Of a DNA stretch of 64,000 nucleotides, positions 40,477 to 61,013 are shown piece after piece. The notes under the pieces were generated by a model. It was not told the DNA's origin. It saw only the letters and a program-made list of their open reading frames with translations, and searched no databases. A program made the position numbers and the translations under genes. Source of the stretch: an uncultured Pseudomonadales bacterium. GTDB lineage: Bacteria; Patescibacteriota; Microgenomatia; UBA1400; Chazhemtobacteraceae. The stretch covers positions 209,543 to 273,542 of the forward strand of contig CAZUBK010000002.1 of the NCBI GenBank assembly GCA_964618725.1, read 5' to 3'. Numbering within the stretch: position 1 is the stretch's first letter; every line of letters starts with the position of its first letter.

Positions 40477-41352
40477 TTAGATTTGGTTAACACTAATTGG
40501 TTGTGTCGTTGTCGCCGAGGCCAAAGGTGGGGAAGTAGGAGTAGGCGATATCGTTTTCTGGGTGGAAGTCGTTTCGTCAGGGCTGCCTGGAGCCTTAAAG
40601 ACAATATTGGTAGGTTGAGGAGGGGGAGTGGATTCTCCTGGGAGGATTTTGGAGCTGATTTGAATTGGAGTAACGACTGGAGCGACTTGGACGGCAGTAG
40701 TTTCGAATTCTTTGGGATTGACCAGGAAGGGTGGAGTAACAACATCTGGGTTGTAGATACGATAGAAGAGAGTGAGGAGCTCTTGGGTAGTTAGTTGGCG
40801 GGTTTGGAGACCCAGACGGGCAAACTGACGAATGAGGTGGTCACGGCGGGGGTAGAGGGAGATCTTGGCTTTCTCGAGGATGTAGTTGTCTTCGAAAGTA
40901 GGCTTTTGGGGAGCAGGGGCGAGGGGGTTAAAGGATTTGACAGAGAGACCAAGTTCGATAGCAGTAAAGGGGACAATGACGTAGAACTTTTTTTCCATGA
41001 CTTTGTTTTCTTTGACGAGGCTTTTGATGTAGGTGCGATATTTGATGATCTGCTCTTTGATTTTTTGAGAGCGGATGGTTTCGAGTTGGGTGTCGAGGCG
41101 TTCGACGTAGTCACTTATATCTTTTCTGGTGGAGCGAAGAAGAACCTGGACGGTGAAGGAGAGTGAGTTGAGCAGGGCGGCGTAGCCGTAGATGGTGGCG
41201 TCTTGTTCTTCCTCGGAGAGGAGGCCGAAGTTGATAGCGGAGGTCTGGAGGACGATGGCGACGGAGCCGTCTTTGAGAATGACAAGATGATCTTTAATGG
41301 TATGGATGTCGAGATGGCTTTGGGTGGTTGCCTTGATGGCTTTATCGGACAT
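40477..41352 (-). CDS. VirB4 N-terminal domain-like protein (separated from ATPase ORF by one in-frame TAA)
   Basis: LKDGSVAIVLQTSAINFGLLSEEEQDATIYGYAALLNSLSFTVQVLLRSTR resembles the VirB4 N-terminus. Pro/Thr-rich C-terminal tail. Stop at 40477-40479 is immediately followed by the ATG of the next ORF. Confidence 0.6.
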   Translation of the reverse strand: MSDKAIKATTQSHLDIHTIKDHLVILKDGSVAIVLQTSAINFGLLSEEEQDATIYGYAALLNSLSFTVQVLLRSTRKDISDYVERLDTQLETIRSQKIKEQIIKYRTYIKSLVKENKVMEKKFYVIVPFTAIELGLSVKSFNPLAPAPQKPTFEDNYILEKAKISLYPRRDHLIRQFARLGLQTRQLTTQELLTLFYRIYNPDVVTPPFLVNPKEFETTAVQVAPVVTPIQISSKILPGESTPPPQPTNIVFKAPGSPDETTSTQKTISPTPTSPPLASATTTQPISVNQI

Positions 41353-41534: not shown

Positions 41535-42494
41535 TTATGTAGTGGCTTTGATTTGGAGTGGGGGGAGGACTTGGCCTTCAAGTTTGAGATCAAAAGTGGG
41601 GAAAGTGTGACCTTCTTTGTCGGCGGCGATTTGGTAACTACCGTCGTCAAGGGGTTTGGCAAAAAGGAATTGACCGAGTTTGTTGCTCTTGGTGGCGCGT
41701 AGTGTCAGGCCATTTTGGAGGATCTCGACGATGGTGGAATCGAGAATCTTGTTGTCAATGGTTAAGGTCATCCCGATTATGGTATTGGGTGTGGTGGGTG
41801 GGTGAGGAATAGGGAGGTTGCTACTAAAGGTAGCGGAAGTTGAGAGTGGAAGAGGAGAAGTCGAGTGTTCTGTAGGAAGGGAGAAGACCGGTATGGGGGC
41901 AGGACGAGGAGAGGGAGGAAGTCGGGGGGGTTCCTGCTCGATATAGAGTGGGGTGGAGACGGGAGTGGCAACTTCTTTAGGGGCTGTGTGGAAAGAGGGA
42001 GATGGTGGGACGGTTTCTGGAATGATGGGAGTAGAGAGGGAGGAGAGAGGCGAAGGAACTAGAGGAGGAGAAACTAGGGTGACAGTAGAAGGCGGGGTGA
42101 CTGGTTTTGGTTCTGGAGCGACGACGGTAATCTGAGATGGGAGAGGGGTGACTAGAGAAGGGGGAGGTAGTGGTGGAGAAGAGAGTTTTGCGAATGGGGA
42201 AGTAGTTTTCTGCCAAGTGTAGACGGTGGGGGAATAGATGGAACGAAAAAAGGCAACGATCCATTGATCAAGAGGGCGGCCTTCGATGGGGAGAAAGGCA
42301 ATTGAGGCGCCGATGGTGACAGAGATGGCAATGGCAGGCCACTTGAGGAAGAAGGGGAGGCCGGAGGCGTAGAAGAGGAGACCAACGATGATACCACCGG
42401 CGAGTTGGAGGAATTGTTTGAGGGTCATGTCACCGACGAGACGGAATTGGTACTGGGTGACGTTTTGGGGGATGGGGTGTTGTTGAACGGGCAT
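41535..42494 (-). CDS. PrgI/VirB3-like membrane protein with Pro-rich extracellular extension
   Basis: N-terminal LKQFLQLAGGIIVGLLFYASGLPFF...AISVTIGASIAFLPIEGRPLDQW (two TM). Sits upstream of VirB4, as PrgI/VirB3 does in Gram-positive T4SS. Long P/S/T-rich C-terminus. Confidence 0.45.
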   Translation of the reverse strand: MPVQQHPIPQNVTQYQFRLVGDMTLKQFLQLAGGIIVGLLFYASGLPFFLKWPAIAISVTIGASIAFLPIEGRPLDQWIVAFFRSIYSPTVYTWQKTTSPFAKLSSPPLPPPSLVTPLPSQITVVAPEPKPVTPPSTVTLVSPPLVPSPLSSLSTPIIPETVPPSPSFHTAPKEVATPVSTPLYIEQEPPRLPPSPRPAPIPVFSLPTEHSTSPLPLSTSATFSSNLPIPHPPTTPNTIIGMTLTIDNKILDSTIVEILQNGLTLRATKSNKLGQFLFAKPLDDGSYQIAADKEGHTFPTFDLKLEGQVLPPLQIKATT

Positions 42495-42556: not shown

Positions 42557-43009
42557 TTAGTCGGTGAAGGATTTAAGAGAAGTATTTTTGAAGACGAGTT
42601 CAAAATCGGAGTCAAAGGTGACGAAATGTTTGATCTTGTGATGGCGGATGGTGAGGAGGTGATAGGCGTCACGGGGTGAGAGCTTGAATTTGTCCATAAG
42701 GAGGGGTATTTGGAGTTGGGATTTGATAGAGAAAGGGGGATTAACTATTTCGAGATATGGCAAAGAAAGGATCTTTTTTAGGTAGTTGTAAATACTTTTG
42801 TTTTGGATGTTTGTTTTTGTTTTGTGATAGTGGATTTTTCGAAGGGAATGCAAGAATTCATCAAGGCATAATGGTGATATACATAAAATCAAGTTTTGTG
42901 AAGCAAGTTTTGTAATGAGGGAAATGCTTTTTTGGTGGTTGAGAGAGTCTTCCTGAAGAAAGCTAACGAGAACGTTTGTATCAAGATAGCAGCTATTGAT
43001 AGATTTCAT
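42557..43009 (-). CDS. vapC: PIN-domain toxin VapC
   Basis: YLDTNVLV N-terminal acidic motif and FVTFDSDF C-terminal motif. Start ATG overlaps vapB by 17 nt. Confidence 0.7.
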   Translation of the reverse strand: MKSINSCYLDTNVLVSFLQEDSLNHQKSISLITKLASQNLILCISPLCLDEFLHSLRKIHYHKTKTNIQNKSIYNYLKKILSLPYLEIVNPPFSIKSQLQIPLLMDKFKLSPRDAYHLLTIRHHKIKHFVTFDSDFELVFKNTSLKSFTD

Positions 43010-43256
43010 ATGATTTATCAATAATCTGGTTAATTTCTTCTGGAGTGAAGTCTCTTCCACCTTTGAAGCCACCGGCGAGGCGTTTGACTAGTTCTTCAGG
43101 AGTTTCTTTGGATATCTTAGGTTCCTGAACGTGAAGAATTATTTGAGACCGTTTTGGTTCGAAGGTAAGTTTACTACCTAGGGGAATATTGAGATCCTTG
43201 GGGAGAATGGTGGCAGTACTTTTGTTTAGTTGGAAGACGGTTGAGGCAAAAGACAT
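42993..43256 (-). CDS. vapB: AbrB/MazE-type antitoxin VapB
   Basis: FQLNKSTATILPKDL SpoVT/AbrB-like N-terminus. 87 aa. Immediately upstream of the PIN toxin. Confidence 0.65.
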   Translation of the reverse strand: MSFASTVFQLNKSTATILPKDLNIPLGSKLTFEPKRSQIILHVQEPKISKETPEELVKRLAGGFKGGRDFTPEEINQIIDKSYEIYQ

Positions 43257-43479: not shown

Positions 43480-46065
43480 ATGGATGAATCAATGAAAGAA
43501 AGAGCTGAGAGAATGGCTGAAAAACCGGAGGACAAAAAGTTTGAGCCCGATTTTGATAGGGCAGGAAAGATTTTGAAAGAAGATGTTGAGAAAGTTCATA
43601 GATTTGTAAGGAAAGCTGGCGATCATATAGTGTATGACGCTGATGGCAATGTGGTTCTTGATGAAAGGAAAGTTAAGGACTTGAGTAAATTGCAGGAACA
43701 AATTGATAAGTTGGTCAAAGTTATGGGAAAGGATCCTGTAACTGATGATGATCAGTTCGAGATTGACTCTAATGCACGAATTGACCAGATAGAGATGAAC
43801 GTTTTGAGACACCTACTTCCTAGAACAAGGTTGATAAAAGTTGCTAATTTGCAGAATAATCCTACTGGTGCAGAAGGAGAACAGGAAGAACTGAGGAGAT
43901 TGAGGGGAGAAGCTCATGTTTTGTTTTTGGAATTTGTGAGAGAGCAGGTGGAAAGAGATAAATATTATCAAGATTTGGTTGCTGGGGATTGGGTTAAGGG
44001 GATTAATGTACCAGAATATAATCAGACAGGAGAGGCTGTTGTGGAACCTGCAACCGCATCGATGTACGCCGCCGCCAGAGGTACCAGAGATTATGTTGGT
44101 CGTCAGGAACCGCCTGCTGGAGGGGGGGGTGGGGAACCACCGAGAGGAGGAGAGGAACCACCAGAGCCGCCACGAGGGAGGGGGGGGCCGCCGCGGGATG
44201 GAGGAACACCAACACCTGAAGAAGGCGAACGGAAGAAAGATCTTGTTTGGGGAGAGAGGGAATGTCCGAATTGTGGAAATGTTGTGACTGCTTTTTCTTC
44301 GAGGTGTTTCTTTTGTAATCGAGATGTAGAAGATGATATAGAAGAAATGAAGAAGGTTAAAAGCCCAAAAGATGCATTTACCTTTAAACAAATTTTTGGC
44401 AGAACAAGGATGGGCAGATATTCGAATGATATTGTAGAAATTGATGGAGAACTCTGTTCTATGTCTTCTTTGGCGATGGAGGTGGAGAATCTTTTGAATT
44501 ATGGATCTAACCCAACTTTTGTGGAAGACAGGATGAGAGATATTTACAAAAAGGCAGATCGTCTGAGAATATTAAATCCTTTGGACAAAAAGGACTATCT
44601 ACTAACTATTAGTAAGATTTGGGAAGCTTCGAAATTAATGAAGTTGGATGAGCAAGGAAAAGCTTCTAGGAGTGAGGCCAGACCTGAAACAGAAGAGGGA
44701 GAGAAAAAAGACAAGAAGTCAGAAGTGACAGAGCTGTCTTCAAATAAAGAGGAGTTGTTCTTGAGAGTGAGAGAAATAGTAAGGGAAGAGTTAAAGAAGA
44801 GGCCCGGTAATGTTGTGGATGTGGCTACCCTACTCAGTCCGTTCGGATTGGCGCTTGGATTACAGCAATATCGGATACCAGAAGGGATGACCGGCTATGT
44901 GGAAGTGAAAGATGCGATAGAAAGGGAAATTGAACTTAGAGTAAGACTTCATAATGCGATGTTGGCAAAAAGTGGTGCTGGTTTGTCGGGAAGGGCTGAT
45001 TCATGGAAAGCAATGAGAGATACGGAGAGATGGAAGAAGACTACCCTGAGAGCTGATGAAACAGGAGATGACTATTTGACAATAGCGACTTTGGAGTCAG
45101 CGGGAGGATTTTCGGTTGGGCTTATGGATAGATCAATACAGTGGTTATATTCGCAGATGGGTGAAGGTAGTCCTTACATAAAATTAGGTGAAAAGGGGGA
45201 GAGGGAAGTACAGATGAAGGAAATAAAAAGAGCAATGCTTTCTGCTTTGGGAGGCGATGAAGTGAAAAATGATGCTTTGGAGTTGGCTTGGCAATTCTGG
45301 GAGATTCATGAAGGATTTTCTCGAGCGGATACTAATAACCCACTTAATCCGCTGGTTCAATTTAAAGAGAGATCTAGATATATGATATTACCCCGTTTCT
45401 TGAAAGATAAAGGGCGCATGGGTTTTGTGACTAATCCTAAGGGTGATGATATTCAAGCGCTTGGGAAAGATGGCTTTGCAATGATTTCTACTGGAGGTGT
45501 GCCGACTCACACCTTGTTGGAAAGTGGTCAATTGTTTGCATCGATTGCTAACTATGGAGTGAATGGTTCGTCTTATGAAAAGATGGTTTCTGGTGTGATT
45601 GCTGGCAGAGAGGTCTATGATTTGTTCAACAAGATGCCGGCGGTAGCTGCTGGTGAACTAATGAAAGAAAGTTTTTGGATTGATGTTAATCCTAAATTTG
45701 GGGCGTTGTTAAAGGCAGGAATAATGAGTAAAGAAGAGCTTGAGACAACAAAGCGGTTGTATTTTAAGTCTTTGTTATGGATGCGTTCCCCAAGAAATGA
45801 AGTGGCAAAACAAGGAAGGGATTACCATTCCCCAGAAGAGATTAGGAGAGCATATCATGCGGCTATTCGGTTGGGTTATCTGAGTCAGGAAAGTGATATC
45901 AGAGAACTTAGGGACTTTGCGAAATCAATCTGGGAGATGATAATCCCGGTGTACGGCGTATCTGAGAGTGAAGCTCAACGGACTATTGCTAGTAGAGAAG
46001 GAGGGCTATCTTGGAGATTGTTTGGGAAAAGAGGTTTTGATTACGAGGGGCCAAGTGCCCAGTAG
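43480..46065 (+). CDS. large cytoplasmic hypothetical protein with zinc-ribbon (CPNCG...CFFCN) and Gly/Pro-rich segment
   Basis: 861 aa, no TM. Cys4 ribbon. Two G8 homopolymer tracts lie in the coding region. Confidence 0.6.
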   Translation: MDESMKERAERMAEKPEDKKFEPDFDRAGKILKEDVEKVHRFVRKAGDHIVYDADGNVVLDERKVKDLSKLQEQIDKLVKVMGKDPVTDDDQFEIDSNARIDQIEMNVLRHLLPRTRLIKVANLQNNPTGAEGEQEELRRLRGEAHVLFLEFVREQVERDKYYQDLVAGDWVKGINVPEYNQTGEAVVEPATASMYAAARGTRDYVGRQEPPAGGGGGEPPRGGEEPPEPPRGRGGPPRDGGTPTPEEGERKKDLVWGERECPNCGNVVTAFSSRCFFCNRDVEDDIEEMKKVKSPKDAFTFKQIFGRTRMGRYSNDIVEIDGELCSMSSLAMEVENLLNYGSNPTFVEDRMRDIYKKADRLRILNPLDKKDYLLTISKIWEASKLMKLDEQGKASRSEARPETEEGEKKDKKSEVTELSSNKEELFLRVREIVREELKKRPGNVVDVATLLSPFGLALGLQQYRIPEGMTGYVEVKDAIEREIELRVRLHNAMLAKSGAGLSGRADSWKAMRDTERWKKTTLRADETGDDYLTIATLESAGGFSVGLMDRSIQWLYSQMGEGSPYIKLGEKGEREVQMKEIKRAMLSALGGDEVKNDALELAWQFWEIHEGFSRADTNNPLNPLVQFKERSRYMILPRFLKDKGRMGFVTNPKGDDIQALGKDGFAMISTGGVPTHTLLESGQLFASIANYGVNGSSYEKMVSGVIAGREVYDLFNKMPAVAAGELMKESFWIDVNPKFGALLKAGIMSKEELETTKRLYFKSLLWMRSPRNEVAKQGRDYHSPEEIRRAYHAAIRLGYLSQESDIRELRDFAKSIWEMIIPVYGVSESEAQRTIASREGGLSWRLFGKRGFDYEGPSAQ
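44122..44129. repeat. G8 homopolymer tract inside 861-aa gene
   Basis: gggggggg directly visible. A second G8 at 44180-44187. Confidence 0.8.
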
Positions 46066-46103: not shown

Positions 46104-47807
46104 TTATTTTTTCCCTAAAAGACCAGCAGCAGCATCAACCGCTTTTTGTCCCGCGGCGCCATACTTTTGTGCTCCAGAGACAAAGCCGCCTAAGGGACCA
46201 CCAGCACTATCGCGAACAGCTCTTCGGCCGAGAGGTTCAGCAATATGCGTGGATGCCCATCTTTCACCACGGTAGCCTTGATTAAGGGCTTCTCCAATCG
46301 CACTACCATATTTGAAGGCAGGGACCTTTAGGGCGTCTCTGATCATATCTGCGACCTTGGGGGTAAGGAAAATAAGAGCGTAAGCCAGAAGGGAACCGAC
46401 GCCGACGGCAGAGTTGCTACCAAGTGGCCAACCTTCGGTTGAACCAGCGAAATAGGGGGGAACCCACATGTCTTCGTTGTTAATCGGAGAAGAAATGCCC
46501 ATGAAGGAGATGGCAAGCATAAACATTATGGTGATACTGGGAAAAACAGAAATATGGGCAGCAAGGTTTCTGATCCAACCAGAAAAAGATTGACTGCCAG
46601 GAAGGACATTGCCAAGAAGAATTATTGGGGAAAAGATAATACTGATGACAACAGCAGCGTAGGCTTGGATGGCCATGAAGGCAATTTTCAAAAGAACAAA
46701 GAAAAAGGCAATAATAAGAATGAGCTTAATGATGGCACCAATCGGAGTGACGGTAAACATAGCGCCATAGAGGATTGTGGGGAGACCTGTGAGAAGTGAC
46801 GCAATTGAGGAGACTCCGGCGGTAAAAAGAATCTCATAAAGGATTTGAAAACCAAGAAAGGCTCCGCCGAAAGGGGTTTGTCCGGTGATGACCTTAACTG
46901 CATAATCAGTTCCTGACTGGGTACTTAGATCTAGGGGGATATTGAGTCGGGAGAGAACTGGTTGAATTGAATCAGCGAAGGGAATCTGCATGCTAATGTC
47001 AATAATTTGGGCGCCTTGAAGAATACTGACGATGAAAGCGGGGAGGAGGAGAGAGAGGTCGATAATGAACCCAGCGATAGCATAAGAGAAAGTGATGGCG
47101 AGGAGAGTGACAACAAGTTTGGGAATGGCTAACTCAAAGTTAATAACAGTTTGGGCGTTGATTTTGGTACGAAACATTAACATAAAACCGTACAAGACGA
47201 AAATGAGAATGAACATTGTGTAGGCGATGTTACGCATGCCACTCCACGCAGGCAGAATAGGGAGAAGCTTATTAAAACCAAGACCGGCACCCGTGGCTTG
47301 AGCATAGGCGGGTTTAACTAAACGATGTTTCTCTAGGTTGTTGTTGATATGGGCAAGATAGCTGACTCCTGAGGCGGGGGGAGAAGTGATGACGGAAGTG
47401 AGCATTCGTGTTAAAGAAGGGATGGCTGAGGCATCGGCAACTCCGAGCGAAAAGGTGTCAGCAGGATTTTCGGGGATAAATTTGGTCATGAAGTCTAAAA
47501 GAACAATATCTGAAAAACCACGGAAGGCTCCTCGTTGGGTCAGACCATCTGATTGAGAGAAAGTATCAAGGGTGAAGGTATCGAAAATTGCTTGTAAGAC
47601 TGTCTTGTCTGGACATTTTCCTGAATACCAGGTTTCAAGATTCATAACATCCCCAGAACGGGAGTTGCAATAATCTTGGATATCACTAAAGGTATTAACA
47701 ACATCGGCAGCAGCTCCGGCTGGGCCTATGGCTGCAAAAGTGGGCTTGGAGGAAGAGATGAAAAGAAAAGTAGTAAAGACGAGAGTATAGAAAAGACGGC
47801 GGAGCAT
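46104..47807 (-). CDS. VirB6/TrbL-like polytopic membrane protein (candidate T4SS channel component)
   Basis: Signal peptide, ~170-aa extracytoplasmic N-domain, then 6 or more TM helices. Context next to other T4SS-like genes. Homology not verified. Confidence 0.5.
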   Translation of the reverse strand: MLRRLFYTLVFTTFLFISSSKPTFAAIGPAGAAADVVNTFSDIQDYCNSRSGDVMNLETWYSGKCPDKTVLQAIFDTFTLDTFSQSDGLTQRGAFRGFSDIVLLDFMTKFIPENPADTFSLGVADASAIPSLTRMLTSVITSPPASGVSYLAHINNNLEKHRLVKPAYAQATGAGLGFNKLLPILPAWSGMRNIAYTMFILIFVLYGFMLMFRTKINAQTVINFELAIPKLVVTLLAITFSYAIAGFIIDLSLLLPAFIVSILQGAQIIDISMQIPFADSIQPVLSRLNIPLDLSTQSGTDYAVKVITGQTPFGGAFLGFQILYEILFTAGVSSIASLLTGLPTILYGAMFTVTPIGAIIKLILIIAFFFVLLKIAFMAIQAYAAVVISIIFSPIILLGNVLPGSQSFSGWIRNLAAHISVFPSITIMFMLAISFMGISSPINNEDMWVPPYFAGSTEGWPLGSNSAVGVGSLLAYALIFLTPKVADMIRDALKVPAFKYGSAIGEALNQGYRGERWASTHIAEPLGRRAVRDSAGGPLGGFVSGAQKYGAAGQKAVDAAAGLLGKK

Positions 47808-47844: not shown

Positions 47845-50800
47845 TTAATTGCTCCAATCTATGGAGGGAAGTATTTTGGAGTAGTCGAGACCTTCATTGT
47901 TTACCTGGGTTGCCTTGTAGGCAGCATTGATTTGAGCAGGCCAATTGAAGGTGCCGGGTTGACTGTCGGTATAGGTACAGGAAAAGTCGTATTGAGGTGG
48001 CTCTCGGCGACAGGCGGCGTCGCCACAAGCAAAAATCTGAAAAAATTCGAGGATGCTGGCGCGGTCAGTGGGGGAATCGAGAGCACGACAATCGAGGTGG
48101 TTACTTTGGGTGGAGTAGGCGTATTGAAGAGAAGTAAAGCATTCAAGTTGAGCGGTTAGATTATTGTTGATTCCGCCGCCACAACCGAGGTCGTCAACGG
48201 GGTTGAACTTGGCATAGTTACTGGCCCCTGACTCTTCAATCCAGGTAGCCATGGTCATAGCCGGATCCATCCCTTTGACTTTGGCGATGCTGATGACGTA
48301 GTTGTAGCAACGACGGATGTTTTCCTCACTGGTAATGGCATTGGGAGCTTTGGGGTTCCAGACGGTTCCCCCAAGGGCAGTAATAAGGGCATCTACTGGT
48401 TTGACATTATGACCGGAAGGTTCGGGGACGCCGTCACAGAAAGCAAGAGAGGTGTTGGTAGCTGAGTCGCTTGCTTCTGGTGGAATGGAGAAGTCAGGGG
48501 GTATATATGAGGCGGAGACAAAAGAACCGAGATCTTCACAGTCTTCTGACTTGCCAGTTTGAAGGCCAGTGGGAATGAGCCAGAAGTTTCTGAGACGACA
48601 GAGGTCGGATTCGGCACGGCCGCCGAGACGTCTAACGGGAGCAGTGCTTTTATCGGTGATGCCCGCGGTGGCACGGTGTTTGAGATATTCGTCGCCGGTA
48701 ATTTCGGCGGAGAAGTAGGCGGAGGCTTGACCGAGCATGTAGGGGGTGTCGGGTTGGTCCATTGGTTCATAAGTAGCACCGGGGATGAGGCGAGAGGGAT
48801 ACTCAGGGTCTACACTTAATTTGCTGGGGAGCATTTGCGAATACAACGAAAGATTGGTACCGTCTTCGAGGGGTTCGGAGATGAGGCGATTAAGATCAGT
48901 TATTTTGGGATTATTAAAGACGGCGATAGTACGGCCGAAATTGCGGAAAAGTAGACCGCTACTGGCTTCGCCGACGGACTCGGCTTGCATGGTAGTTTTA
49001 TATCCCGAAGTATAGTAGAGGACTGCTCCGGTGAGGGGATTTTTGACGGGGCAACTTTGATCTTCTTTGATTTCTTCGGTTTTGACGGGGACGAGGAGAG
49101 ATTGATCGAGGACGTCGGGGAATTCGTCACCGGGGAGTTTGTCATATTTACGGGTGGGGAGCTTGAGAGGAAAAGTTGGAGGAGAGGAGAGGCTCATGTT
49201 TTTCTCGTCATCTAGATCGCGGCAGAGGTTGTCATAGGCCCAAATATCGACAGTTCGATCAGCGAGGGGGACAAAGACCTGGTCGGATTCAGTATTGAAG
49301 TCAAGGGTGCCATCTTGTTTGTAGGTGATACTGTAGTTATCGGCGGTGTAGAGCTTTTTCTCTCTTTCAGCCAGAAGCCAACTGGGAGAAATGGTATTTA
49401 AGATGCCGCCGACGGGATCACCAATGATGTCACGAAGGGCTTGGATGTATGGCAGGTTTTCGTTGAGGATGCCGACGGTGGTGGCAAAAGTGGTGGGATC
49501 AACGTAACGCAGGGCTAAGTAGCCGCGGACGTTGTCGAAGACAAAAGGCTGAAAGGCATCATACATAGCGCGAGTTTCTGGGTTGAGTTTGGCATATCTT
49601 TCGGCAGCGCTATTACAGACAGGGAATTTAGTTAGACACTTAGGGAGGGAATTGATTAGTTCACTGATGGTAAAGGTGGAGACGACAGGAGGGATGAGGC
49701 TTTCGTCGGTGGAGGTTACAGAACAATCGGGATTGACGATGGCGCCAGTAGAGTCAAGGATATTGACACCGTCGTAGATGAGCCATTCACCGGTGGCAGT
49801 GGGGCAGGCATTTCTAATAAGGGGGGTAATGGCGAGAGGGTGTGACGGACCGGAGGTAATAAAGGCAAGGACGGCATTGAGATCTAGGTCGCCAGTTTTT
49901 GGCTCGAGTCCGTATTCGGTGAAGACGTGAGGTTTACCAGTGGTACCAGTGATCTGTTGTTCCCAGAGCCAGGATTCGGTACCACAACGGATAGATGCAA
50001 AAGCACAGGAAGAAAGAGAATAGACGTTGTGGGCAGTGTAGTCAGCGGCTTGGTAGGCCTCCTTAGCGGTGGCGAGAAAGATGCCGGCGTCACGCTCAGG
50101 ATGAGAGGTATTCATGGGAGCGGCGGCTATTTTGAGGCCACTGAGCCCAGATTTGAAGAAGAGGAGCTGTTCTTTGTAGGTAGTACCACATTGAGCTAGG
50201 TCGCTACAGTTGTATTCTCTGAGATCATTTAGTTCATTGCCGAAGATGACAATATCGGTATTGCGAGTAAAGACGGCAGAGAGGCGAGTGGCAAAGTCTT
50301 TGAGTTGGGTGAGGTAGCCAATTTCGGTGTTTGGTTGTAGGCCGGTGATACGGATAAGGCGGACAGTAGCTTGACTGTAGAGTTGGTTGTAGCGTTGCAG
50401 GGTTCCATCATCTGAGTTGATGGCAAGTAGAAAAGTGACGGGTTTGTTGGCGGCGGCGGTGCCAAAGAAGTCAGCTGTATGACCGTAGCCAATGTTGGTG
50501 CCAGTATTGGAGGGAAGAGGCGGATTGTTGGAGTCTGTCGGGGTAGGGGTGACGCTTGGTGTGGTACCGGGTTCTGGTATATCAGCTGGATCGACAAAGG
50601 GGAAGGGAGAGTCAAAGATGGGTTCGGTGAAGGTGCGTTTGGTTTCTATGTCAACCGGACTTAAGCGATTGAAGATCTCGAGGGCACGATGGAGGAGGTT
50701 ACTGATGTCACCGGTGAGTCCACTACCGACTTTGTAGCGGTGAAACATCCAGGCTTTAGCATTCATTTGTTGTTCTTGAGTAAGGAGCCGCCAGAAAGTG

Positions 50801-51858
50801 CGAAAAGATTCTTTGGGGGTGCCATCTGTAACGAAAAGAGGTTTGTCGGCGAGACCGCTGTAGGGATAGACACGGGCAAGTTTGTCAGGTGTAATAGAGG
50901 ACTCTGCGGCGAGATCGGGACCTAGGCCGCCGAGTTGGAGGCCATTAAAATTAACGAGAAGACGGATATCGATGAACTCTTTACAGTTTGGATCATCGGG
51001 GCCGGAGGGGGTGCAATACCAACCAGTGTTGTCTCGATACGTAGAGGGTGGGGGTCCACCATTGCCGGGGGGGGCGTCGGAGGCTGCCTCTTCGGCACAA
51101 GTGTATCTTTCTAATTGGGCTTGAGGAGTAACGGCGCAAGTGAGTTGATAGTCTTCTAATTGGCTATGGACAAAAGGAACACGTTCTTTGCAGGTGCCGT
51201 TGGGTCGAGAGAGATTGCCGTCATAGGTACAACCATCTTCGGTGCCACCCGAAGCAACAGCACAGAAAGGTATGGGAGGAGGGGGATTGTCAGAAGGAGG
51301 AGGAGTGCCAGGATTATCATTGATGTCGTGACAAGAAGATGGGTCAGCGGGATTATCACAGACTTGGGCACCTCGACAGTCGACGACGTCAGGATTGGCA
51401 CAACAGGAGGCGATGGAGTTACAAACATAGTAACTTTGTCCAGGGTCGACACCTTGGCCGTTGTATTGAAAGGGTCCATTGGTGACGGTGATGACGGCAT
51501 TGTCGACTCCGTCAAAGTCGGGGGAGGTTGTACCGGTCCGAAACTCATTACCAAAACAAAAACGGTTAACCAGATTCCCACTAGCATCAAAACCTTCGGC
51601 ACAGGTGGGAATTATTTCAGTAGAGGTGCCACAAATGGGAGACTTGAGAGCGAACGCAGAAGTATAGAGACTAGGGTTACCACAGCAGATATCAAAACCT
51701 TCATAAGGAACAGAGTCGGTACAGGAGGGGCCGGTGGTGACACATTGGTTGCCTTGGGCATCGGGTCCACTACACCAACAATAGTTGGCACCTTGAGCCG
51801 AGGCTGAAGAAGGGAGGGAAAGAAAGAGAAAGAGGCTGATTAAGAAAGAGAGAAGCAT
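47845..51858 (-). CDS. giant secreted Cys-rich surface protein (1337 aa), candidate adhesin/cell-wall-active protein
   Basis: Signal peptide MLLSFLISLFLFLSLPSSASA, dense Cys clusters, P/S/T-rich linkers. Sits between the VirB6-like gene and the pilin-like array. Confidence 0.65.
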   Translation of the reverse strand: MLLSFLISLFLFLSLPSSASAQGANYCWCSGPDAQGNQCVTTGPSCTDSVPYEGFDICCGNPSLYTSAFALKSPICGTSTEIIPTCAEGFDASGNLVNRFCFGNEFRTGTTSPDFDGVDNAVITVTNGPFQYNGQGVDPGQSYYVCNSIASCCANPDVVDCRGAQVCDNPADPSSCHDINDNPGTPPPSDNPPPPIPFCAVASGGTEDGCTYDGNLSRPNGTCKERVPFVHSQLEDYQLTCAVTPQAQLERYTCAEEAASDAPPGNGGPPPSTYRDNTGWYCTPSGPDDPNCKEFIDIRLLVNFNGLQLGGLGPDLAAESSITPDKLARVYPYSGLADKPLFVTDGTPKESFRTFWRLLTQEQQMNAKAWMFHRYKVGSGLTGDISNLLHRALEIFNRLSPVDIETKRTFTEPIFDSPFPFVDPADIPEPGTTPSVTPTPTDSNNPPLPSNTGTNIGYGHTADFFGTAAANKPVTFLLAINSDDGTLQRYNQLYSQATVRLIRITGLQPNTEIGYLTQLKDFATRLSAVFTRNTDIVIFGNELNDLREYNCSDLAQCGTTYKEQLLFFKSGLSGLKIAAAPMNTSHPERDAGIFLATAKEAYQAADYTAHNVYSLSSCAFASIRCGTESWLWEQQITGTTGKPHVFTEYGLEPKTGDLDLNAVLAFITSGPSHPLAITPLIRNACPTATGEWLIYDGVNILDSTGAIVNPDCSVTSTDESLIPPVVSTFTISELINSLPKCLTKFPVCNSAAERYAKLNPETRAMYDAFQPFVFDNVRGYLALRYVDPTTFATTVGILNENLPYIQALRDIIGDPVGGILNTISPSWLLAEREKKLYTADNYSITYKQDGTLDFNTESDQVFVPLADRTVDIWAYDNLCRDLDDEKNMSLSSPPTFPLKLPTRKYDKLPGDEFPDVLDQSLLVPVKTEEIKEDQSCPVKNPLTGAVLYYTSGYKTTMQAESVGEASSGLLFRNFGRTIAVFNNPKITDLNRLISEPLEDGTNLSLYSQMLPSKLSVDPEYPSRLIPGATYEPMDQPDTPYMLGQASAYFSAEITGDEYLKHRATAGITDKSTAPVRRLGGRAESDLCRLRNFWLIPTGLQTGKSEDCEDLGSFVSASYIPPDFSIPPEASDSATNTSLAFCDGVPEPSGHNVKPVDALITALGGTVWNPKAPNAITSEENIRRCYNYVISIAKVKGMDPAMTMATWIEESGASNYAKFNPVDDLGCGGGINNNLTAQLECFTSLQYAYSTQSNHLDCRALDSPTDRASILEFFQIFACGDAACRREPPQYDFSCTYTDSQPGTFNWPAQINAAYKATQVNNEGLDYSKILPSIDWSN

Positions 51859-51902: not shown

Positions 51903-52229
51903 TTAGGGAATCTGAAATTGAAGTTCGGTAACAGGGGCGCCGGTGAAGGTTTGAATGAGGAGGAGGATGAGCCAGGCGAGACCGAGGCCAATAACGCCGA
52001 CGATGGCAAAGAGCAGAGTCTGCATGCCGGCTTGATATTCTTTGGGGTTATCGGCGCCCATGACAATTTTGGCACCGGCGAAGATGATCATGCCGATGGC
52101 GGCAATGATGATGACGGGGGTAATAATGCCAAGGAGATTGGCAATGACGCATTTAATGCCGCCAAGGGTGGCGACTTCGATACCGGCTTGGACGGTGGCA
52201 CATTGTGGGTCAGCTAGCCAATCAAACAT
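51903..52229 (-). CDS. VirB2/TrbC-pilin-like small membrane protein, paralog 1 (no signal peptide)
   Basis: Two hydrophobic helices separated by a short polar loop (GADNPKEYQAGMQT). Confidence 0.55.
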   Translation of the reverse strand: MFDWLADPQCATVQAGIEVATLGGIKCVIANLLGIITPVIIIAAIGMIIFAGAKIVMGADNPKEYQAGMQTLLFAIVGVIGLGLAWLILLLIQTFTGAPVTELQFQIP

Positions 52230-52245
52230 AGATTTTAGTCAGAAA

Positions 52246-52629
52246 CTAGAAAGGTCTTAGCTCTTGAATGGACTTAGTTGCGTCAAAGATATCGACACCG
52301 AAGAAGGCACCGATAATTCTGATGAGAGCCCAAGAAGCAGCGACAATGGCGAGACCGATGACGGCGCTAGTGATTCTCTGCTGAGCCTTTTCAGTTTTGG
52401 TTTTGTCACCACCGGAGGTTATCCACTCGACACCCCCCCAGACGAGGTAGAGAAAGACGAGGATACCGGAGATGATAAGGGCGACAGAGGCGAGAGAAGA
52501 GACTAATTTACCAAGATCGGTAATCTGGATTTGTTCTGGTTGCTCGATGCCAATGGTTTGAGCAAAGGCGGGAGTCGCGAGAGCAAGAGAAGATAAAAGA
52601 GTTGAAGTAACAGTGAGCGCTTTTTTCAT
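52246..52629 (-). CDS. VirB2/TrbC-pilin-like small membrane protein, paralog 2
   Basis: Signal peptide ending AFA-Q. Family motif WGGVEWITSGGDKTKTEKAQQRITSAVIGLAIV. Confidence 0.6.
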   Translation of the reverse strand: MKKALTVTSTLLSSLALATPAFAQTIGIEQPEQIQITDLGKLVSSLASVALIISGILVFLYLVWGGVEWITSGGDKTKTEKAQQRITSAVIGLAIVAASWALIRIIGAFFGVDIFDATKSIQELRPF

Positions 52630-52704
52630 GTTTGGTTTAGATTGCTAATTAATATGATTATTCCCTAAATGCTAATACTATGTCAATGGGGTCAGACAAG
52701 CGTG

Positions 52705-53028
52705 TTAACTAATGGGGAGAGCTTCTTCTAGGCCGAAGTAAGTGCGGACGATTAACCAGATTGCCCAGGAGGCGGCAACAATAGCGAGACCGATGACGGA
52801 GGCAGTAATGCGCTTCTGGGCGTTTTCGACGTGGGCCTTTTCTCCGCCTGAGGTAATCCACTCAATCCCCCCCCAGACGAGGTAGAGGAAGACGAGGATA
52901 CCGGAGATGACGAGGGCCACATCGACGAGACTTTTGACGAGGGGGCCAATTTCGGTAAAGCCAAAGAAGCTTTCGGCTTCGGATCTAATGTCTGTTTGCA
53001 TAAAAGTTATTATGGCGTAAATGTCCAA
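52705..53028 (-). CDS. VirB2/TrbC-pilin-like small membrane protein, paralog 3
   Basis: WGGIEWITSGGEKAHVENAQKRITASVIGLAIV. Alternative start at 53001. C8 tract at 52867-52874. Confidence 0.55.
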   Translation of the reverse strand: MDIYAIITFMQTDIRSEAESFFGFTEIGPLVKSLVDVALVISGILVFLYLVWGGIEWITSGGEKAHVENAQKRITASVIGLAIVAASWAIWLIVRTYFGLEEALPIS

Positions 53029-53348
53029 TCAATATTAAGGATATCTATCTTGAGGACTTCGGAAATAAAGGCAATGATGGCGTAGGAAGCGACGAGGACG
53101 GTGAGGCCAATGAGGGCATTGCTGATTTTTTTCTGGGAGGCTTCGACTTTGGTTTTGTCACCGCCACCAGTAATCCATTCAATGCCGCCCCAAATGAGGT
53201 AGAGGAGGAAGGTAAGGGCGCCGACGACGACGAGAGTTTTCCAAAGCTGGGCGATATAGAAGGCAAGGCCGGAACCGGCTTCACCGGGAGTAGTGAATTG
53301 AGAAAGGGCAGGATTGGTGATTTGGGCGTAGACGGGCTTGATAAACAT
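53010..53348 (-). CDS. VirB2/TrbC-pilin-like small membrane protein, paralog 4
   Basis: Start at internal ATG (MFIKPVYAQ...), 5 nt after the upstream stop. WGGIEWITGGGDKTKVEASQKKISNALIGLTVL. Confidence 0.55.
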   Translation of the reverse strand: MFIKPVYAQITNPALSQFTTPGEAGSGLAFYIAQLWKTLVVVGALTFLLYLIWGGIEWITGGGDKTKVEASQKKISNALIGLTVLVASYAIIAFISEVLKIDILNIDWTFTP

Positions 53349-53353
53349 GAGTT

Positions 53354-53704
53354 TTAGAGAAAATCGGCAGGACTTAGTAAAGGAACGTCGAGAATGGTGG
53401 CAACAATACCGGCAATGAAATAGGAGACGATGACGGCGATGAGGCCAATGGCGGCATTGGTCATTTGTTTTTGGGCGGTTTCGACTTTGCCTTTTTCTCC
53501 TCCGGAAGTAATCCAAGTGAGGGCACCGGTAAGAAAATAGAAGAGGAAGGCAATTCCGGCGGCGGCGGTGATGGCACCAACAATGACGCTAGCAAAGAGT
53601 TGGAAGTCGGTAACGGGAGTTGCGGAAACTATTTGGAATTTACCCACCCCACCAATGGGGCCAAGGGGGATAGTAGCGGCGTAAGCAGAAGGAATGATGG
53701 ACAT
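53354..53704 (-). CDS. VirB2/TrbC-pilin-like small membrane protein, paralog 5
   Basis: LTWITSGGEKGKVETAQKQMTNAAIGLIAV. Confidence 0.55.
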   Translation of the reverse strand: MSIIPSAYAATIPLGPIGGVGKFQIVSATPVTDFQLFASVIVGAITAAAGIAFLFYFLTGALTWITSGGEKGKVETAQKQMTNAAIGLIAVIVSYFIAGIVATILDVPLLSPADFL

Positions 53705-53716
53705 ATTTATATTGTA

Positions 53717-54115
53717 CTATAGCGTTTCGATGTTGGGACTCAAAATAAAAGTGGCGTCGCCAAAGAAAAGATAACCGATGATGCCGGCAATAATGAAGGA
53801 GACAGTGATGATGCCAAGACCGATGACTGTGTGCATGAATTTCTGGTTAGCCTCAGCAATTTTTTTGGCGTCACCGGCGGCGGTGATGTAGCCAAGACCG
53901 CCAAAGAGGAACTGAAAAAGAGACCAGACGCCGGCGATGGCAATGAGAAGGCGGATGACGTTGGTGAAGAACTTAGAACCGATATCAGCGGTATTAACAA
54001 TTACATTGGTAGGTGGATTGAGGACGCCGATTGGGTTGGGGGCAGCTAAGGCAGTTAGGGGCAAGAAAAAAAGAAGGAATAATAAAGAGGTGGAGATAAA
54101 GGTTGTTTTTTTCAT
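53717..54115 (-). CDS. VirB2/TrbC-pilin-like small membrane protein, paralog 6
   Basis: Start at MKKTTF (ATG 54113-54115) with Sec signal peptide. GGLGYITAAGDAKKIAEANQKFMHTVIGLGII. Confidence 0.55.
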   Translation of the reverse strand: MKKTTFISTSLLFLLFFLPLTALAAPNPIGVLNPPTNVIVNTADIGSKFFTNVIRLLIAIAGVWSLFQFLFGGLGYITAAGDAKKIAEANQKFMHTVIGLGIITVSFIIAGIIGYLFFGDATFILSPNIETL

Positions 54116-54119
54116 TTGA

Positions 54120-54476
54120 TTAGAATAGCCCACCACCGCCTACCTGGAAAAGGATACGGGTAATCCAGAAGGCAAGGACGGAAAGACCTAAGCCTATTAA
54201 AGCATAGTTTAGTGTATTAGCAGCATTTTGGGTCTCTTTGGCGTTGCCAGCAGAAGCAACAAAGCGGAAACCAGCTAGGAGGGCAACAAAAAAAGCAGCG
54301 ATGCCAGTGAAGACGGGGATGTTACTGATGATGGGTTGGAGGAAACCGGCCAAAGTGATAGTTGATCCAAGGAGACTGGCGGGGGTGAAGTATTGATTAA
54401 GATTCTGAGCATAAGCGGGAGAGATGAGAAAGAGTAAGGAGATAAAAGTAAAGATAATAGAGAGAAGTAGCTTCAT
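54120..54476 (-). CDS. VirB2/TrbC-pilin-like small membrane protein, paralog 7
   Basis: Start at MKLLLS (ATG 54474-54476), signal peptide ending AYA-Q. FVASAGNAKETQNAANTLNYALIGLGL. Confidence 0.55.
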   Translation of the reverse strand: MKLLLSIIFTFISLLFLISPAYAQNLNQYFTPASLLGSTITLAGFLQPIISNIPVFTGIAAFFVALLAGFRFVASAGNAKETQNAANTLNYALIGLGLSVLAFWITRILFQVGGGGLF

Positions 54477-54483
54477 AAGTATT

Positions 54484-54807
54484 TTAGAAAGGGGCGGTAG
54501 CGCCGAGGCCAATAATTGTTAGAACGAGGCGAATGATGACGAAGCTAGTGAAAGTGATGACTAGGCCAATAAGGCTGGTGATGATGCGGGAAGTGATTTT
54601 GCTGATTTTGTCGGGGCTACCCTCGGCGAAGACGTAGCCGATGGCGGCGAGGCTCAAATTGGCAAAGAAGGCAAGACCAACAAAAAAGAAGGCAAGGTTG
54701 ACAATGCTGAATGGGCCACGAGTTAGAAGGTCAGAGATATTGGAGCCAACGGGAAAGCTTGAGTTGGCGGGATTGGTGATATTCTGGATGACTTCTGATG
54801 CTTTCAT
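54484..54807 (-). CDS. VirB2/TrbC-pilin-like small membrane protein, paralog 8 (no signal peptide)
   Basis: YVFAEGSPDKISKITSRIITSLIGLVI. Two hydrophobic helices. Confidence 0.5.
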   Translation of the reverse strand: MKASEVIQNITNPANSSFPVGSNISDLLTRGPFSIVNLAFFFVGLAFFANLSLAAIGYVFAEGSPDKISKITSRIITSLIGLVITFTSFVIIRLVLTIIGLGATAPF

Positions 54808-54813
54808 TTGTGT

Positions 54814-55212
54814 TTAGAATCCGGGGATGTTGAGAATCTGGACGCCGAGGAGGTTAAGGAGGACGACGGACATGATTATAAATAATAGACCAGAAATAGC
54901 GGCAGTAATAGTCTGTTGAGCAGCTTTGATCTTGTCGGGCATGCCAGCGGAGGTAGTGAGGACATAAAAGCCATAGAGAATAAGGAGGAGGGCGATGCCG
55001 CCACCAATGCCCAGACTAAGGGTGAGGACATTACTGACAAAGTCTTGTCCACCATTGTCGACACTAATACAGCCAAGGGCAGTATTGATAGTATTAGTGT
55101 TGCCATTACAGACTATTTCTGTAGTTTCACCAACGGCATGCACAAAAGAAGCTTGTGAAAGGAAAGCTATAGAGGAGAGAAAAAAGGTGGTGGGTCGGAT
55201 GATACGCGGCAT
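54814..55212 (-). CDS. VirB2/TrbC-pilin-like small membrane protein, paralog 9
   Basis: Signal peptide ending VHA-V. Two Cys in the mature N-terminus. TTSAGMPDKIKAAQQTITAAISGLLFI. Confidence 0.55.
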   Translation of the reverse strand: MPRIIRPTTFFLSSIAFLSQASFVHAVGETTEIVCNGNTNTINTALGCISVDNGGQDFVSNVLTLSLGIGGGIALLLILYGFYVLTTSAGMPDKIKAAQQTITAAISGLLFIIMSVVLLNLLGVQILNIPGF

Positions 55213-55257: not shown

Positions 55258-57006
55258 ATGGGCAGTGATATGAAGAAATGCTTGTTGGTGTTACTATCTG
55301 TTTTGGTGATCGGCTTGAGTTTGCCGGTTGCGGCAGCAGAGGACTGTATGGCTGATCCAAATGACTGGCCGCTGGACAAATTAGAGAGGTGTACTAAAGA
55401 GTTGGAGCACTTAAATGCGCTGTCAAAAGCGGCAACGGCACCCTTGGAGGCTGAGGTGAAGAGATTGGATGCTCAGATCAAGTCAATTCAAAGTCAGATA
55501 AAGCGAGCAGAAGTAAGAGAAAAAGATTTGGAGAAATCAATTGAGGAGAGGGAAAGTGAGTTGGCTGACCAATATGTTTTGTTGGCGAGAAAGATGAGGG
55601 AACACTATAAAAAGGTAAGATCTGGATCAACTTTGGCGTTGATATTATCGAAGACTGGGACAGGGGAGATATCGAGGGAACTTCAGTATCAAGAGGAAGC
55701 GGCGGAGCAAGACAGAACACTGATTTTGGGTTTGGCGGAGGAAATAGTGGGGTTGGAGAAAGATAAAAAGACTTCGGAGGAAAATAGGGTACGGTTGGCT
55801 ACTTTACAAATAAGTATTGATAAGCAGGCAGAGTTCTTTGAGAAAGAGATAGCCAATGCAAAGAATTATCAGTCAAGTTTGACTGGAAAGATCGCTGTTT
55901 TATCAGCAATACAGGAGAGCATTTTGTCGGGCAAGGGGGAGACTTTCCAGACGACGGTGGGTGATGTGCCACTGGTTGGAGATCCGAATTCATTGCCTAA
56001 TTACAATCCAGGATTCTCGCCGGCATTTGCGGCCTTTTCTTTTGGGGCACCACACTTTAAGGGGATGAGTCAATATGGCGCGTTTGGGAGGGCAAAGGCG
56101 GGGCAGGGTGTGGAAGATATTTTGCGAGCATATTACGGAGGAGGGATCGAGATCAAAAAGGACTATTCAACGGGAATAAACATAACCGTTCGGGGGTATG
56201 GGACAGTAGACATTGAAACATATACAAAGCGGATTTATGAGATGCCGGGTGAATGGGGAGACCAAGGAGGGATGGAGGCATTGAAGGCGCAGGCGGTGGC
56301 GGCGAGGTCATATGCCTTGGCGTATACAGATAATGGATCAGGTTCCATTTGTGCGACGGAGGCGTGTCAGGTGTATAAAGGAAATAACAAGGGAGGTAAG
56401 TGGGAAGAGGCGGTGAATGCGACGAGGGGGTGGGTGATGATAGCCAACGGGAAGCCATTGAGCGCTTGGTACGCATCAACATCGGGTGGGTATCAAGAAT
56501 CGTATACGAGTAACGGATATGCAACACCGGGATTTTGGGATGCAGACGGAGGTAGAGGTGGTTGGACGTCAAACGCCTGGGAAAACAAAGCAGGGAGTCC
56601 TTGGTTCTACAAGGGATGGTACAAGGATCGAAGTGGGGTGAGCTGTGGACGGAGTCATCCTTGGCTGACGAGTGAAGAGATGGCTGATGTCTTAAATGCC
56701 TATGTAGTATTGTTTCAGGGGGGTGGGGATAGTAGTCGAGTGGTACCGGTTGATTTATCGTCTTGTTGGGGAAAGGGTGGAAATCCATATTCATTATCGG
56801 AGTTACGTGAGATTGGGGGGTATACGAGTGTGAGTGGAATAAAACAGGTTGATTACAGTAGTAATGGGTTTACGGAGCGGGTGATATTACAGACGAACAA
56901 AGGAGAGGTCTCGATTTCAGGGGATCAATTTAAAAAGTCGTTTAATTTACGGGCGCCGGGAAGAATTGCTTTGAAGTCGGGATTGTTCAATATAGAGAGG
57001 AAGTGA
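55258..57006 (+). CDS. SpoIID/LytB-domain peptidoglycan hydrolase with N-terminal coiled-coil (EnvC-like) region
   Basis: Signal peptide. ~200-aa coiled coil. C-terminal GMSQYGAFGRAKAG...LSAWYASTSGGY SpoIID/LytB-like block. Transcribed divergently from the pilin-like array. Confidence 0.7.
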   Translation: MGSDMKKCLLVLLSVLVIGLSLPVAAAEDCMADPNDWPLDKLERCTKELEHLNALSKAATAPLEAEVKRLDAQIKSIQSQIKRAEVREKDLEKSIEERESELADQYVLLARKMREHYKKVRSGSTLALILSKTGTGEISRELQYQEEAAEQDRTLILGLAEEIVGLEKDKKTSEENRVRLATLQISIDKQAEFFEKEIANAKNYQSSLTGKIAVLSAIQESILSGKGETFQTTVGDVPLVGDPNSLPNYNPGFSPAFAAFSFGAPHFKGMSQYGAFGRAKAGQGVEDILRAYYGGGIEIKKDYSTGINITVRGYGTVDIETYTKRIYEMPGEWGDQGGMEALKAQAVAARSYALAYTDNGSGSICATEACQVYKGNNKGGKWEEAVNATRGWVMIANGKPLSAWYASTSGGYQESYTSNGYATPGFWDADGGRGGWTSNAWENKAGSPWFYKGWYKDRSGVSCGRSHPWLTSEEMADVLNAYVVLFQGGGDSSRVVPVDLSSCWGKGGNPYSLSELREIGGYTSVSGIKQVDYSSNGFTERVILQTNKGEVSISGDQFKKSFNLRAPGRIALKSGLFNIERK

Positions 57007-61004: not shown

Positions 61005-61013
61005 CAAGTAAAA

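Follow-up and report, generated by a model that had tools for sequence, protein, structure and literature searches.

A Cys-rich, modular candidate glycan hydrolase encoded between the pilin genes and a VirB6-like gene of a Microgenomates-type secretion cluster

What does a very large, Cys-rich protein do when its gene stands between an array of pilin genes and the gene of a channel-like membrane protein? The question is raised by 64,000 nucleotides (nt) of DNA from an uncultured, ultrasmall bacterium of the Microgenomatia, within the candidate phyla radiation (contig CAZUBK010000002.1, positions 209,543 to 273,542 of the forward strand; this whole stretch is referred to as the window), which contain a gene cluster that encodes a type IV secretion system (T4SS). 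An earlier note, made from the letters of the sequence, had described the product of 1337 amino acids (aa) as secreted and had compared its place in the operon with that of adhesins or tip proteins. We consider it rather probable that the protein is a Sec-exported, disulfide-stabilised, modular glycan hydrolase and a dedicated accessory of the Microgenomates-type T4SS/VirB2-pilus apparatus. Because its gene always has the pilin genes on one side and that of the channel on the other, and its product contains a glycan-cutting domain, it is probably the wall-breaching enzyme of this T4SS, and the best reading by analogy is that it would play a role like that of VirB1, PrgK or TraG on a non-homologous scaffold.

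The exported protein and its modules

An open reading frame (ORF) had been reported at 47845-51858, and it was found at exactly those coordinates, on the minus strand and with an ATG start; the identical protein is present in source databases (P0001), in an entry without a name. Domains were parsed by local iteration of hidden Markov models (HMMs) over the family, for which 93 proteins were collected, together with alignments, and structural models were judged by their predicted local distance difference test score (pLDDT). The parts of the gene are as follows.

47845..51858, minus strand: giant post-pilin gene, from the ORF list and translation; ATG start, 1337 codons plus stop
51796..51858, minus strand: Sec-type signal peptide, aa 1-21, MLLSFLISLFLFLSLPSSASA followed by QG, from the sequence
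51259..51792, minus strand: N-terminal Cys-rich module, aa 23-200, 16 Cys; accessory, outside the family core
50659..51258, minus strand: modA, aa 201-400, first half of the scaffold; present in 61 of the 93 proteins
51067..51074, plus strand: G8 homopolymer, read as C8 in the coding direction; codes for Pro-Pro, aa 262-264
50494..50658, minus strand: Pro/Thr-rich linker, aa 401-455, from the sequence; pLDDT below 50
49711..50493, minus strand: clan GH-A (β/α)8 glycoside-hydrolase domain, aa 456-716; present in six close members
50233-50235, minus strand: E542, candidate acid/base, in N541-E542, after a β strand
49915-49917, minus strand: E648, candidate nucleophile, in T647-E648, after a β strand
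48469..49692, minus strand: modC, aa 723-1130, the other and larger scaffold half; present in 58 of the 93 proteins
47923..48378, minus strand: C-terminal helical domain, aa 1161-1312; found in 18 of the 93 proteins
48229-48234, minus strand: invariant pair E1209-S1210, in the motif (D/N)P..(A/F)...(W/A)(I/L).ES.AS.Y...D(F/L)G

The N-terminus is the sole hydrophobic segment of the protein; its hydrophobic core is followed by a terminal A-x-A motif (A-S-A), and cleavage would fall after MLLSFLISLFLFLSLPSSASA. Homologues have equivalent signal-like N-termini with K/R n-regions. The signal peptide proposed in the earlier note was therefore confirmed by these features, and secretion of the protein is supported by its sequence. 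The C-terminus (...LPSIDWSN) lacks an LPXTG motif with a hydrophobic tail, and no repeats were found in the sequence.

Cysteine accounts for 3.1% of the residues (42 Cys), and 16 of these fall within aa 23-200, where they make up 9%. In the 37 further large ORFs of the window the share is 0.44%; the binomial probability of such an excess is approximately 3e-22 when the protein is taken whole and 2.5e-16 when the N-terminal module is taken by itself. The CWCSG...CCGNP string to which attention had been drawn (CWCSGPDAQGNQCVTTGPSCTDS...CCGNP) sits at aa 27-62, and the clustering of Cys residues described there is real. Eight scaffold cysteines (C210, C223, C241, C741, C748, C879, C936 and C1107) are near-invariant, each being Cys in 44-51 of the 45-52 family members aligned at that position, and most of those in the N-terminal module are shared by its five carriers, 12 of the 16 being kept in at least three of the five. 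With the Cys pattern conserved in this way, the protein is therefore plausibly disulfide-stabilised and extracellular, as the earlier note had presumed.

Searches for glycoside-hydrolase or lysozyme-like domains, which the same note had recommended, gave two positive results: a clan GH-A TIM barrel, assigned with confidence, and a C-terminal domain in which the invariant Glu is matched in alignment with the catalytic Glu of lytic transglycosylases. The first of these, aa 456-716, has the (β/α)8 fold, and in the model N541-E542 comes right after strand 535-539 and T647-E648 after strand 644-646, the two Glu residues being 106 aa apart; further sites are N611-x-Y613 and W692. Retaining hydrolases of the clan (glycoside hydrolase (GH) families GH5, GH26, GH39, GH128 and others) have the same fold, the same Asn-Glu acid/base, a nucleophile Glu approximately 100 residues further on and an N-x-Y in between. 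E648 does not vary among 20 sequences, and all six close homologues have GNELN; such conservation of the presumed catalytic residues favours an enzyme over a lectin. Enzymes of clan GH-A act on β-glycans. Remote relatives gave matches below threshold to PF11790/GH128 (3.7e-5) and PF03198/GH72, and a search with relatives matched PDB entry 6uax (GH128), where FTEYG falls on LTEF (E 0.044); neither the isolated domain nor the whole protein gave a Pfam match even at E up to 10. Because the Z profile was flat and no curated family matched, we cannot assign the domain to an existing GH family.

The second candidate enzyme domain, aa 1161-1312, belongs to an 18-member subfamily in which P, W, E-S, S, Y, D, G and Q are invariant. 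A 13-member sister subfamily with the motif ALNE(T/N)GG...HFGCD is homologous to it by hhalign (91%, E 1e-6) and occupies a middle position in some proteins and a C-terminal one in others. Both subfamilies keep P1199, E1209, S1213 and G1225, and the pair E1209-S1210 is invariant in 23 sequences. The model is all-helical and of low confidence; E1209 ends its helix 477-487, equivalent to aa 1199-1209. This is the arrangement of the GH23 superfamily, in which a helix closes with the catalytic Glu(-Ser) of a motif (D/N)P-x-hydrophobic-...-A-...-ES-G. When the joint profile of the two subfamilies was aligned by hhalign with Escherichia coli EmtA plus the C-domain of Slt70, it gave a P value of 2.4e-4 and a probability of 43%, with (D/N)P..FA.AIWL.ESGA placed on VDPQLITAIIAIESGG, i.e. 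on the EmtA/Slt70 catalytic Glu. Control alignments with 19 unrelated proteins of the window and one with a reversed control gave P 0.085 or worse, and the Pfam-recognised SLT_3 tails of two family members (P0006 and P0009) scored lower on the same template than did the joint profile. The domain is thus probably lysozyme-like or lytic-transglycosylase-like, a candidate muramidase. Its family gave no Pfam, PHROG or PDB sequence match, PDB profile searches included, and no Pfam or NCBIfam match to SLT, CHAP, LytM or NlpC/P60 was found in the 1337-aa protein. A c-type lysozyme identity was considered, as hhalign puts Glu35 and Asp52 on the family Glu and Asp, but at P 0.047 it was not relied on; T4 lysozyme showed no similarity to the domain, nor did hhalign detect homology of the domain to the SLT_3-like tails that P0006 and P0009 carry.

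The enzyme domains are carried on a scaffold of approximately 600 aa. Its first half, modA, contains C210, C223 and C241 and the motifs LGGLGPD (309-315), VYPYSGLADKPL (330-341) and FWRLLT (355-360), with G310, G313, D325, P340, E350, W356 and R357 invariant across 52 sequences, and is modelled as mostly helical (pLDDT 40-72). The second, modC, has the motifs LPxCLxxxPVC (738-748), PF(D/V)FDNxRGY (771-780), ENLPY (800-804), NNPK (982-985) and LRNFW (1089-1093) and the conserved residues C741, C748, C879, C936 and C1107. Many members of approximately 700 aa consist of modA joined straight to modC and of nothing else, and since such scaffold-only members are common, sequence conservation identifies modA plus modC as the family-defining core and the other modules as accessories. 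The accessories are swapped: the GH-A module is found in six members, and the Glu-Ser domain takes either a middle or a C-terminal position. The N-terminal Cys-rich module occurs in only five of the proteins collected (P0001, P0003, P0006, P0065 and P0066), and its AlphaFold pLDDT is mostly 30-47, rising to 64 at aa 163-182; for this module as for modA, the models (pLDDT 30-72) are too poor to support conclusions about the fold. No paralogue of any module was found elsewhere in the window. A Foldseek search of aa 723-1337 against the PDB returned nothing under E 1.4, and a PDB sequence search with the whole protein gave antibody light-chain matches only, which we regard as chance matches.

A G8 tract had also been noted in the gene. 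It is present at 51067-51074, but no special significance attaches to it: with a G content of 30.3%, 3.2 runs of at least eight G would be expected in the window and four are seen, so that composition explains their number, and the tract lies in a Pro-rich insertion (aa ~255-285) peculiar to modA of this protein and missing from its homologues. Phase variation at the tract was rejected on the same two grounds.

Family and conserved gene position

The family is small: a word-indexed search of 5.8 billion clusters returned four relatives, and when an HMM was run exhaustively against 1.84 billion representatives at 50% identity, approximately 90 were recovered at E ≤ 1e-3. It was recovered only from Patescibacteria-type contigs, labelled either Patescibacteria group or Candidatus Collierbacteria (Microgenomates group). 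No paper describing it was found in the searchable literature, and no member of the modA/modC scaffold was detected in the description of the Saccharimonadia cluster. The 1337-aa protein shows what defines the family, namely modA and modC with their near-invariant cysteines and a gene that follows the PF18895 pilin genes. The two sets of genes that flank it are as follows.

51903..55212, minus strand: pil1 to pil8, eight VirB2-like pilin genes (PF18895, T4SS_pilin), upstream in the same operon
46104..47807, minus strand: downstream gene, product of 567 aa: signal peptide, then an external domain (~190 aa) and several transmembrane segments

The eight pilins match PF18895 at E values from 1e-9 to 0.011; seven of them reach E ≤ 3e-4, and the scores of three equal or exceed the gathering score. 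A gap of 44 nt separates the array from the giant gene, and one of 37 nt separates the giant gene from that of the polytopic 567-aa protein. The latter has no Pfam or NCBIfam match, and we call it VirB6-like on topology and position only; VirB6 homologues are scarce in Microgenomatia, which suggests extreme sequence divergence (PMC12102498). With PrgI and VirB4 genes within 10 kb, the giant gene lies inside a T4SS cluster, and its reported place between a pilin-like array and a channel-like gene proved correct, here and in related loci.

Synteny was inspected in nine loci that carry the scaffold (L001-L008 and the contig of P0017), each of them on a contig of Patescibacteria/Microgenomates type. 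The scaffold gene directly follows the pilin array in 9/9, and the order of orthologous pilins is conserved throughout L001-L008. Directly downstream lies a VirB6-like gene in seven of the nine, the orthologue of the 567-aa gene in six of L001-L008 and a 553-aa gene in the P0017 locus; of the remaining two loci, L003 is rearranged and L007 ends at a contig edge. PrgI, a TraC-like gene and VirB4 follow further on in L008 and the P0017 locus. Each locus has one copy of the giant gene, in a fixed slot of a structural operon. Across the same genomes, identity is 31-40% for the giant protein, 74% for VirB4 and 46-70% for the SpoIID-domain protein described below, and the giant protein thus appears, from these values, to be among the fastest-evolving members of the cluster.

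A second type of protein, of ~1000-1100 aa, was observed in further patescibacterial clusters in the same slot after the pilin genes and before the VirB6-like gene (P0071, at L009 3877-7098; also in L010). It has a GH-A-related N-terminal region and a Glu-Ser C-terminal domain and no detectable modA or modC, and we detected no homology of the scaffold to the central region of P0061/P0071-type proteins. The order of genes in the P0071 locus is pilin array, P0071, a 532-aa protein, PrgI, TraC-like gene, VirB4 and an Amidase_2 protein. As the P0071 type lacks the scaffold yet has the same modules in the same slot, the property common to the occupants of the slot is hydrolase cargo. That non-homologous positional equivalents bear the same two enzyme-type modules supports the view of the 1337-aa protein as a hydrolase of the apparatus.

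Neighbouring genes

The other features of the cluster, and those just past it, are listed here.

41535-42494, minus strand: PrgI/VirB3-like gene (Pfam)
40477-41352, minus strand: 291-aa protein; in two related clusters the gene at the corresponding position is TraC-like (PF26593)
38614-40476, minus strand: VirB4 ATPase (Pfam)
35635-38571, minus strand: 978-aa membrane protein directly downstream of VirB4, with a Ribosomal_TL5_C-like β-barrel match (aa 82-164) and a weak DUF6861 match
42557-43072, minus strand: PIN-domain (toxin-like) gene, inserted in the T4SS cluster with the PrgI gene on one side and the 861-aa gene on the other
43480-46065, plus strand: 861-aa protein, apparently cytoplasmic and highly charged; zinc-ribbon motif CPNC...CFFC; between the VirB6-like and PrgI genes
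55258..57006, plus strand: SpoIID-domain protein, 582 aa (PF08486, E 1.5e-16), divergent from the pilin array
57928-59775, plus strand: 615-aa Gly/Glu/Val/Arg/Lys-rich protein with one transmembrane segment; G9 run at 58036-58044
60605-61005, plus strand: tmRNA gene, tag peptide AEDKILSAGDFSPLYEEEVAPSYAYAYAA, just past the cluster
61755-61840, plus strand: tRNA-Ser(TGA) gene, just past the cluster

The PrgI/VirB3-like, 291-aa and VirB4 proteins are 39, 67 and 74% identical, respectively, to their orthologues in L008. The SpoIID gene is kept at its position in L001, L003, L006, L008 and the P0017 locus, which are all the related loci that reach that far; the N-terminal half of its product is long and coiled-coil-like, and the protein is a candidate second muralytic or wall-remodelling enzyme of the cluster. 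The slot of the 978-aa protein is occupied by a Peptidase_M23 or Amidase_2 gene in related clusters and by a gene with a DD-peptidase domain in S. epibionticum. At the place of the 861-aa gene, related loci have a gene of 600-890 aa in the same orientation, with no blastp similarity to the 861-aa protein.

A C8 run (G8 on the coding strand) lies inside pil3 at 52867-52874, where composition would lead one to expect 0.02 such C runs, and is a possible slippage site. The GC skew is +0.31 across the window (G 30.3%, C 16.0%) without a change of sign, and reaches its highest value, 0.61, over the 615-aa gene, a weak homologue of which adjoins the SpoIID gene in L008. At third codon positions the plus-strand skew runs from +0.15 to +0.76 irrespective of gene orientation. 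Strand asymmetry of the same magnitude was observed in L001, L002, L005, L006 and L008, and the asymmetry is therefore a property of the lineage.

Possible roles of the protein

Like VirB1 of Agrobacterium, PrgK of pCF10, TraG of pIP501 and TcpG of pCW3, the 1337-aa protein is encoded in a T4SS cluster and is an exported, multi-domain protein with modules of muralytic type, including a candidate lysozyme-like or lytic-transglycosylase-like domain with Glu-Ser, in the place of which the relatives P0006 and P0009 carry Pfam SLT_3. It differs from them in having a cleavable N-terminal signal instead of a membrane anchor, in that half of it is a Cys-containing scaffold without a known fold, and in that its gene follows the pilin array rather than VirB4. 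To our knowledge, a clan GH-A module has not been described in T4SS hydrolases; PslG, a clan GH-A glycosidase of the Psl exopolysaccharide machinery, is likewise encoded in the operon of an envelope machine. Hydrolases associated with T4SSs are thus a known kind, and what is new in this family is the GH-A module and a scaffold that matches no fold in the PDB. The closest parallel within the Patescibacteria comes from S. epibionticum ML1, in which SEML1_0006 (two lysozyme-like domains and a cysteine proteinase) and SEML1_0007 (a DD-peptidase) are encoded in the T4SS cluster and were essential in transposon sequencing (PMC10633639, PMC12102498). They too are large exported hydrolase-bearing proteins of a cluster with a VirB2 array, although their genes lie downstream of virB4 and their domain content is different. 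A role for the 1337-aa protein as a T4SS-dedicated hydrolase fits these essentiality data and also the survey of patescibacterial clusters, in which VirB1 homologues are seldom found near virB4, substitution by other glycosidases is suggested, and PrgB-like adhesins were not detected (PMC12102498).

We envisage that the exported protein would remain at the site of secretion or of the pilus, where modA and modC would bear interchangeable enzyme modules and dock the protein on the apparatus; the docking partner would be either the pilins or the VirB6-like protein with its large external domain. The modules would be a retaining GH-A glycosidase, with E542 as acid/base and E648 as nucleophile, and a lysozyme-like or lytic-transglycosylase-like domain acting through E1209, while the lineage-restricted 16-Cys module may bind glycans. 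Local cleavage of polysaccharide barriers would let the pilus or channel through, the lysozyme-like domain cutting peptidoglycan and the GH-A domain a non-peptidoglycan β-glycan. Because of the GH-A module and the fast turnover of modules, the target is possibly not the cell's own peptidoglycan but perhaps a polymer of the host surface.

Several points weigh against this interpretation. No Pfam, NCBIfam or PHROGs model matched the protein at threshold, whether whole or domain by domain, and, as the modA/modC scaffold has no fold match in the PDB, about half of the protein is left without an assignable fold or function; the docking proposed for it is pure inference. The lysozyme-like assignment is moderately supported, given the hhalign probability, the low-confidence model and the lack of a PDB sequence match. 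We know of no clan GH-A enzyme that cuts peptidoglycan, and the analogy with VirB1 therefore leaves the GH-A module unexplained. In addition, the role of VirB1 could be filled by other muralytic candidates, the SpoIID protein here and the M23 or Amidase_2 proteins encoded after VirB4 in relatives.

The gene order from which the earlier note argued stands, and it is the sole ground for the specific identity as adhesin or tip protein suggested there; location at the tip is conceivable. VirB5 lies between the VirB2 and VirB6 genes in many diderm operons, and the 1337-aa protein resembles the VirB5/TraC tip proteins of diderm T4SSs in being secreted and encoded beside VirB2, just before VirB6. It might accordingly be an analogue of VirB5, a pilus-tip or pilus-associated adhesin whose scaffold caps or decorates the pilus and whose Cys-rich and glycosidase-like modules are mainly lectin-like and bind the host surface. 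Its Cys content, its divergence relative to VirB4 and its swapped outer modules would suit such a protein, the last two being as in host-recognition proteins, and no other adhesin has been detected in patescibacterial T4SS clusters (PMC12102498). However, Pfam and fold searches found no similarity to VirB5, TraC, PrgB or any other adhesin family or fold: VirB5 is a helical bundle of ~220 aa (PF07996, or the TraC fold), one-sixth of the size and free of the enzyme domains seen here, and the LPXTG motif and adhesin domains of a PrgB-type protein, like repeats, are absent. The conserved Glu pair of the GH-A domain and the C-terminal Glu-Ser argue for enzymes over inactivated lectins, and S. epibionticum has an essential pilin array without the giant gene, so that the family is no general pilus component. 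We therefore judge an adhesin of this kind unlikely, while noting that the two interpretations overlap if a tip protein is also catalytic.

The established epibiotic, parasitic lifestyle of Patescibacteria (PMC12102498, PMC10633639) brings to mind a secreted antibacterial or host-lytic effector, i.e. a toxin, whose hydrolases would be delivered or released onto the host and cause lysis or leakage of nutrients, the scaffold serving to target or translocate them, much as a conserved delivery domain does in polymorphic toxins. A constant scaffold whose enzymatic ends vary (GH-A, lysozyme-like variants, SLT_3) is indeed what polymorphic toxins look like. An effector of this type seems distinctly improbable to us, since the signal is a Sec signal peptide and not of T4SS type, the next gene, 37 nt downstream, is VirB6-like and no small immunity-like gene adjoins, there is a single copy per locus at a fixed place in a structural operon, and members that consist of the scaffold (~700 aa) are left unexplained. 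Least credible of all is the alternative against which the earlier note had set its own proposal, a general carbohydrate-active or cell-wall housekeeping enzyme that happens to lie beside the T4SS genes. The sole confidently assigned domain is, it is true, a generic clan GH-A glycosidase, but the gene occupies the same position in every related locus inspected, distant ones too, with gaps of 37-44 nt, and the family is tiny, found only on Patescibacteria-type contigs and without paralogues elsewhere in the window.

Taking the 1337-aa protein as a hydrolase of the T4SS, one may go a step further and suppose that the scaffold itself is a VirB5 analogue with a new fold, which caps or rides the VirB2-like pilus of a monoderm T4SS and bears glycan-cutting ‘drill heads’ matched to the host (GH-A and lysozyme-like variants); this is speculative, and we regard it as a possibility on the doubtful side. 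The patescibacterial T4SS is required for epibiotic growth in the single species in which this has been tested, and it is the only monoderm T4SS with VirB2-like pilins (PMC10633639, PMC12857230, PMC12102498). Were the scaffold a pilus-capping subunit, the protein would be both a determinant of host range and the envelope-breaching device of the T4SS of epibiotic Patescibacteria. The giant-gene family is in any case a concrete candidate for the missing part with the role of VirB1 in Microgenomates-type clusters, with defined domains and residues (E542, E648 and E1209) that can be tested, and the substrate of the GH-A domain could help to identify the hosts of these bacteria or the barrier that is crossed.

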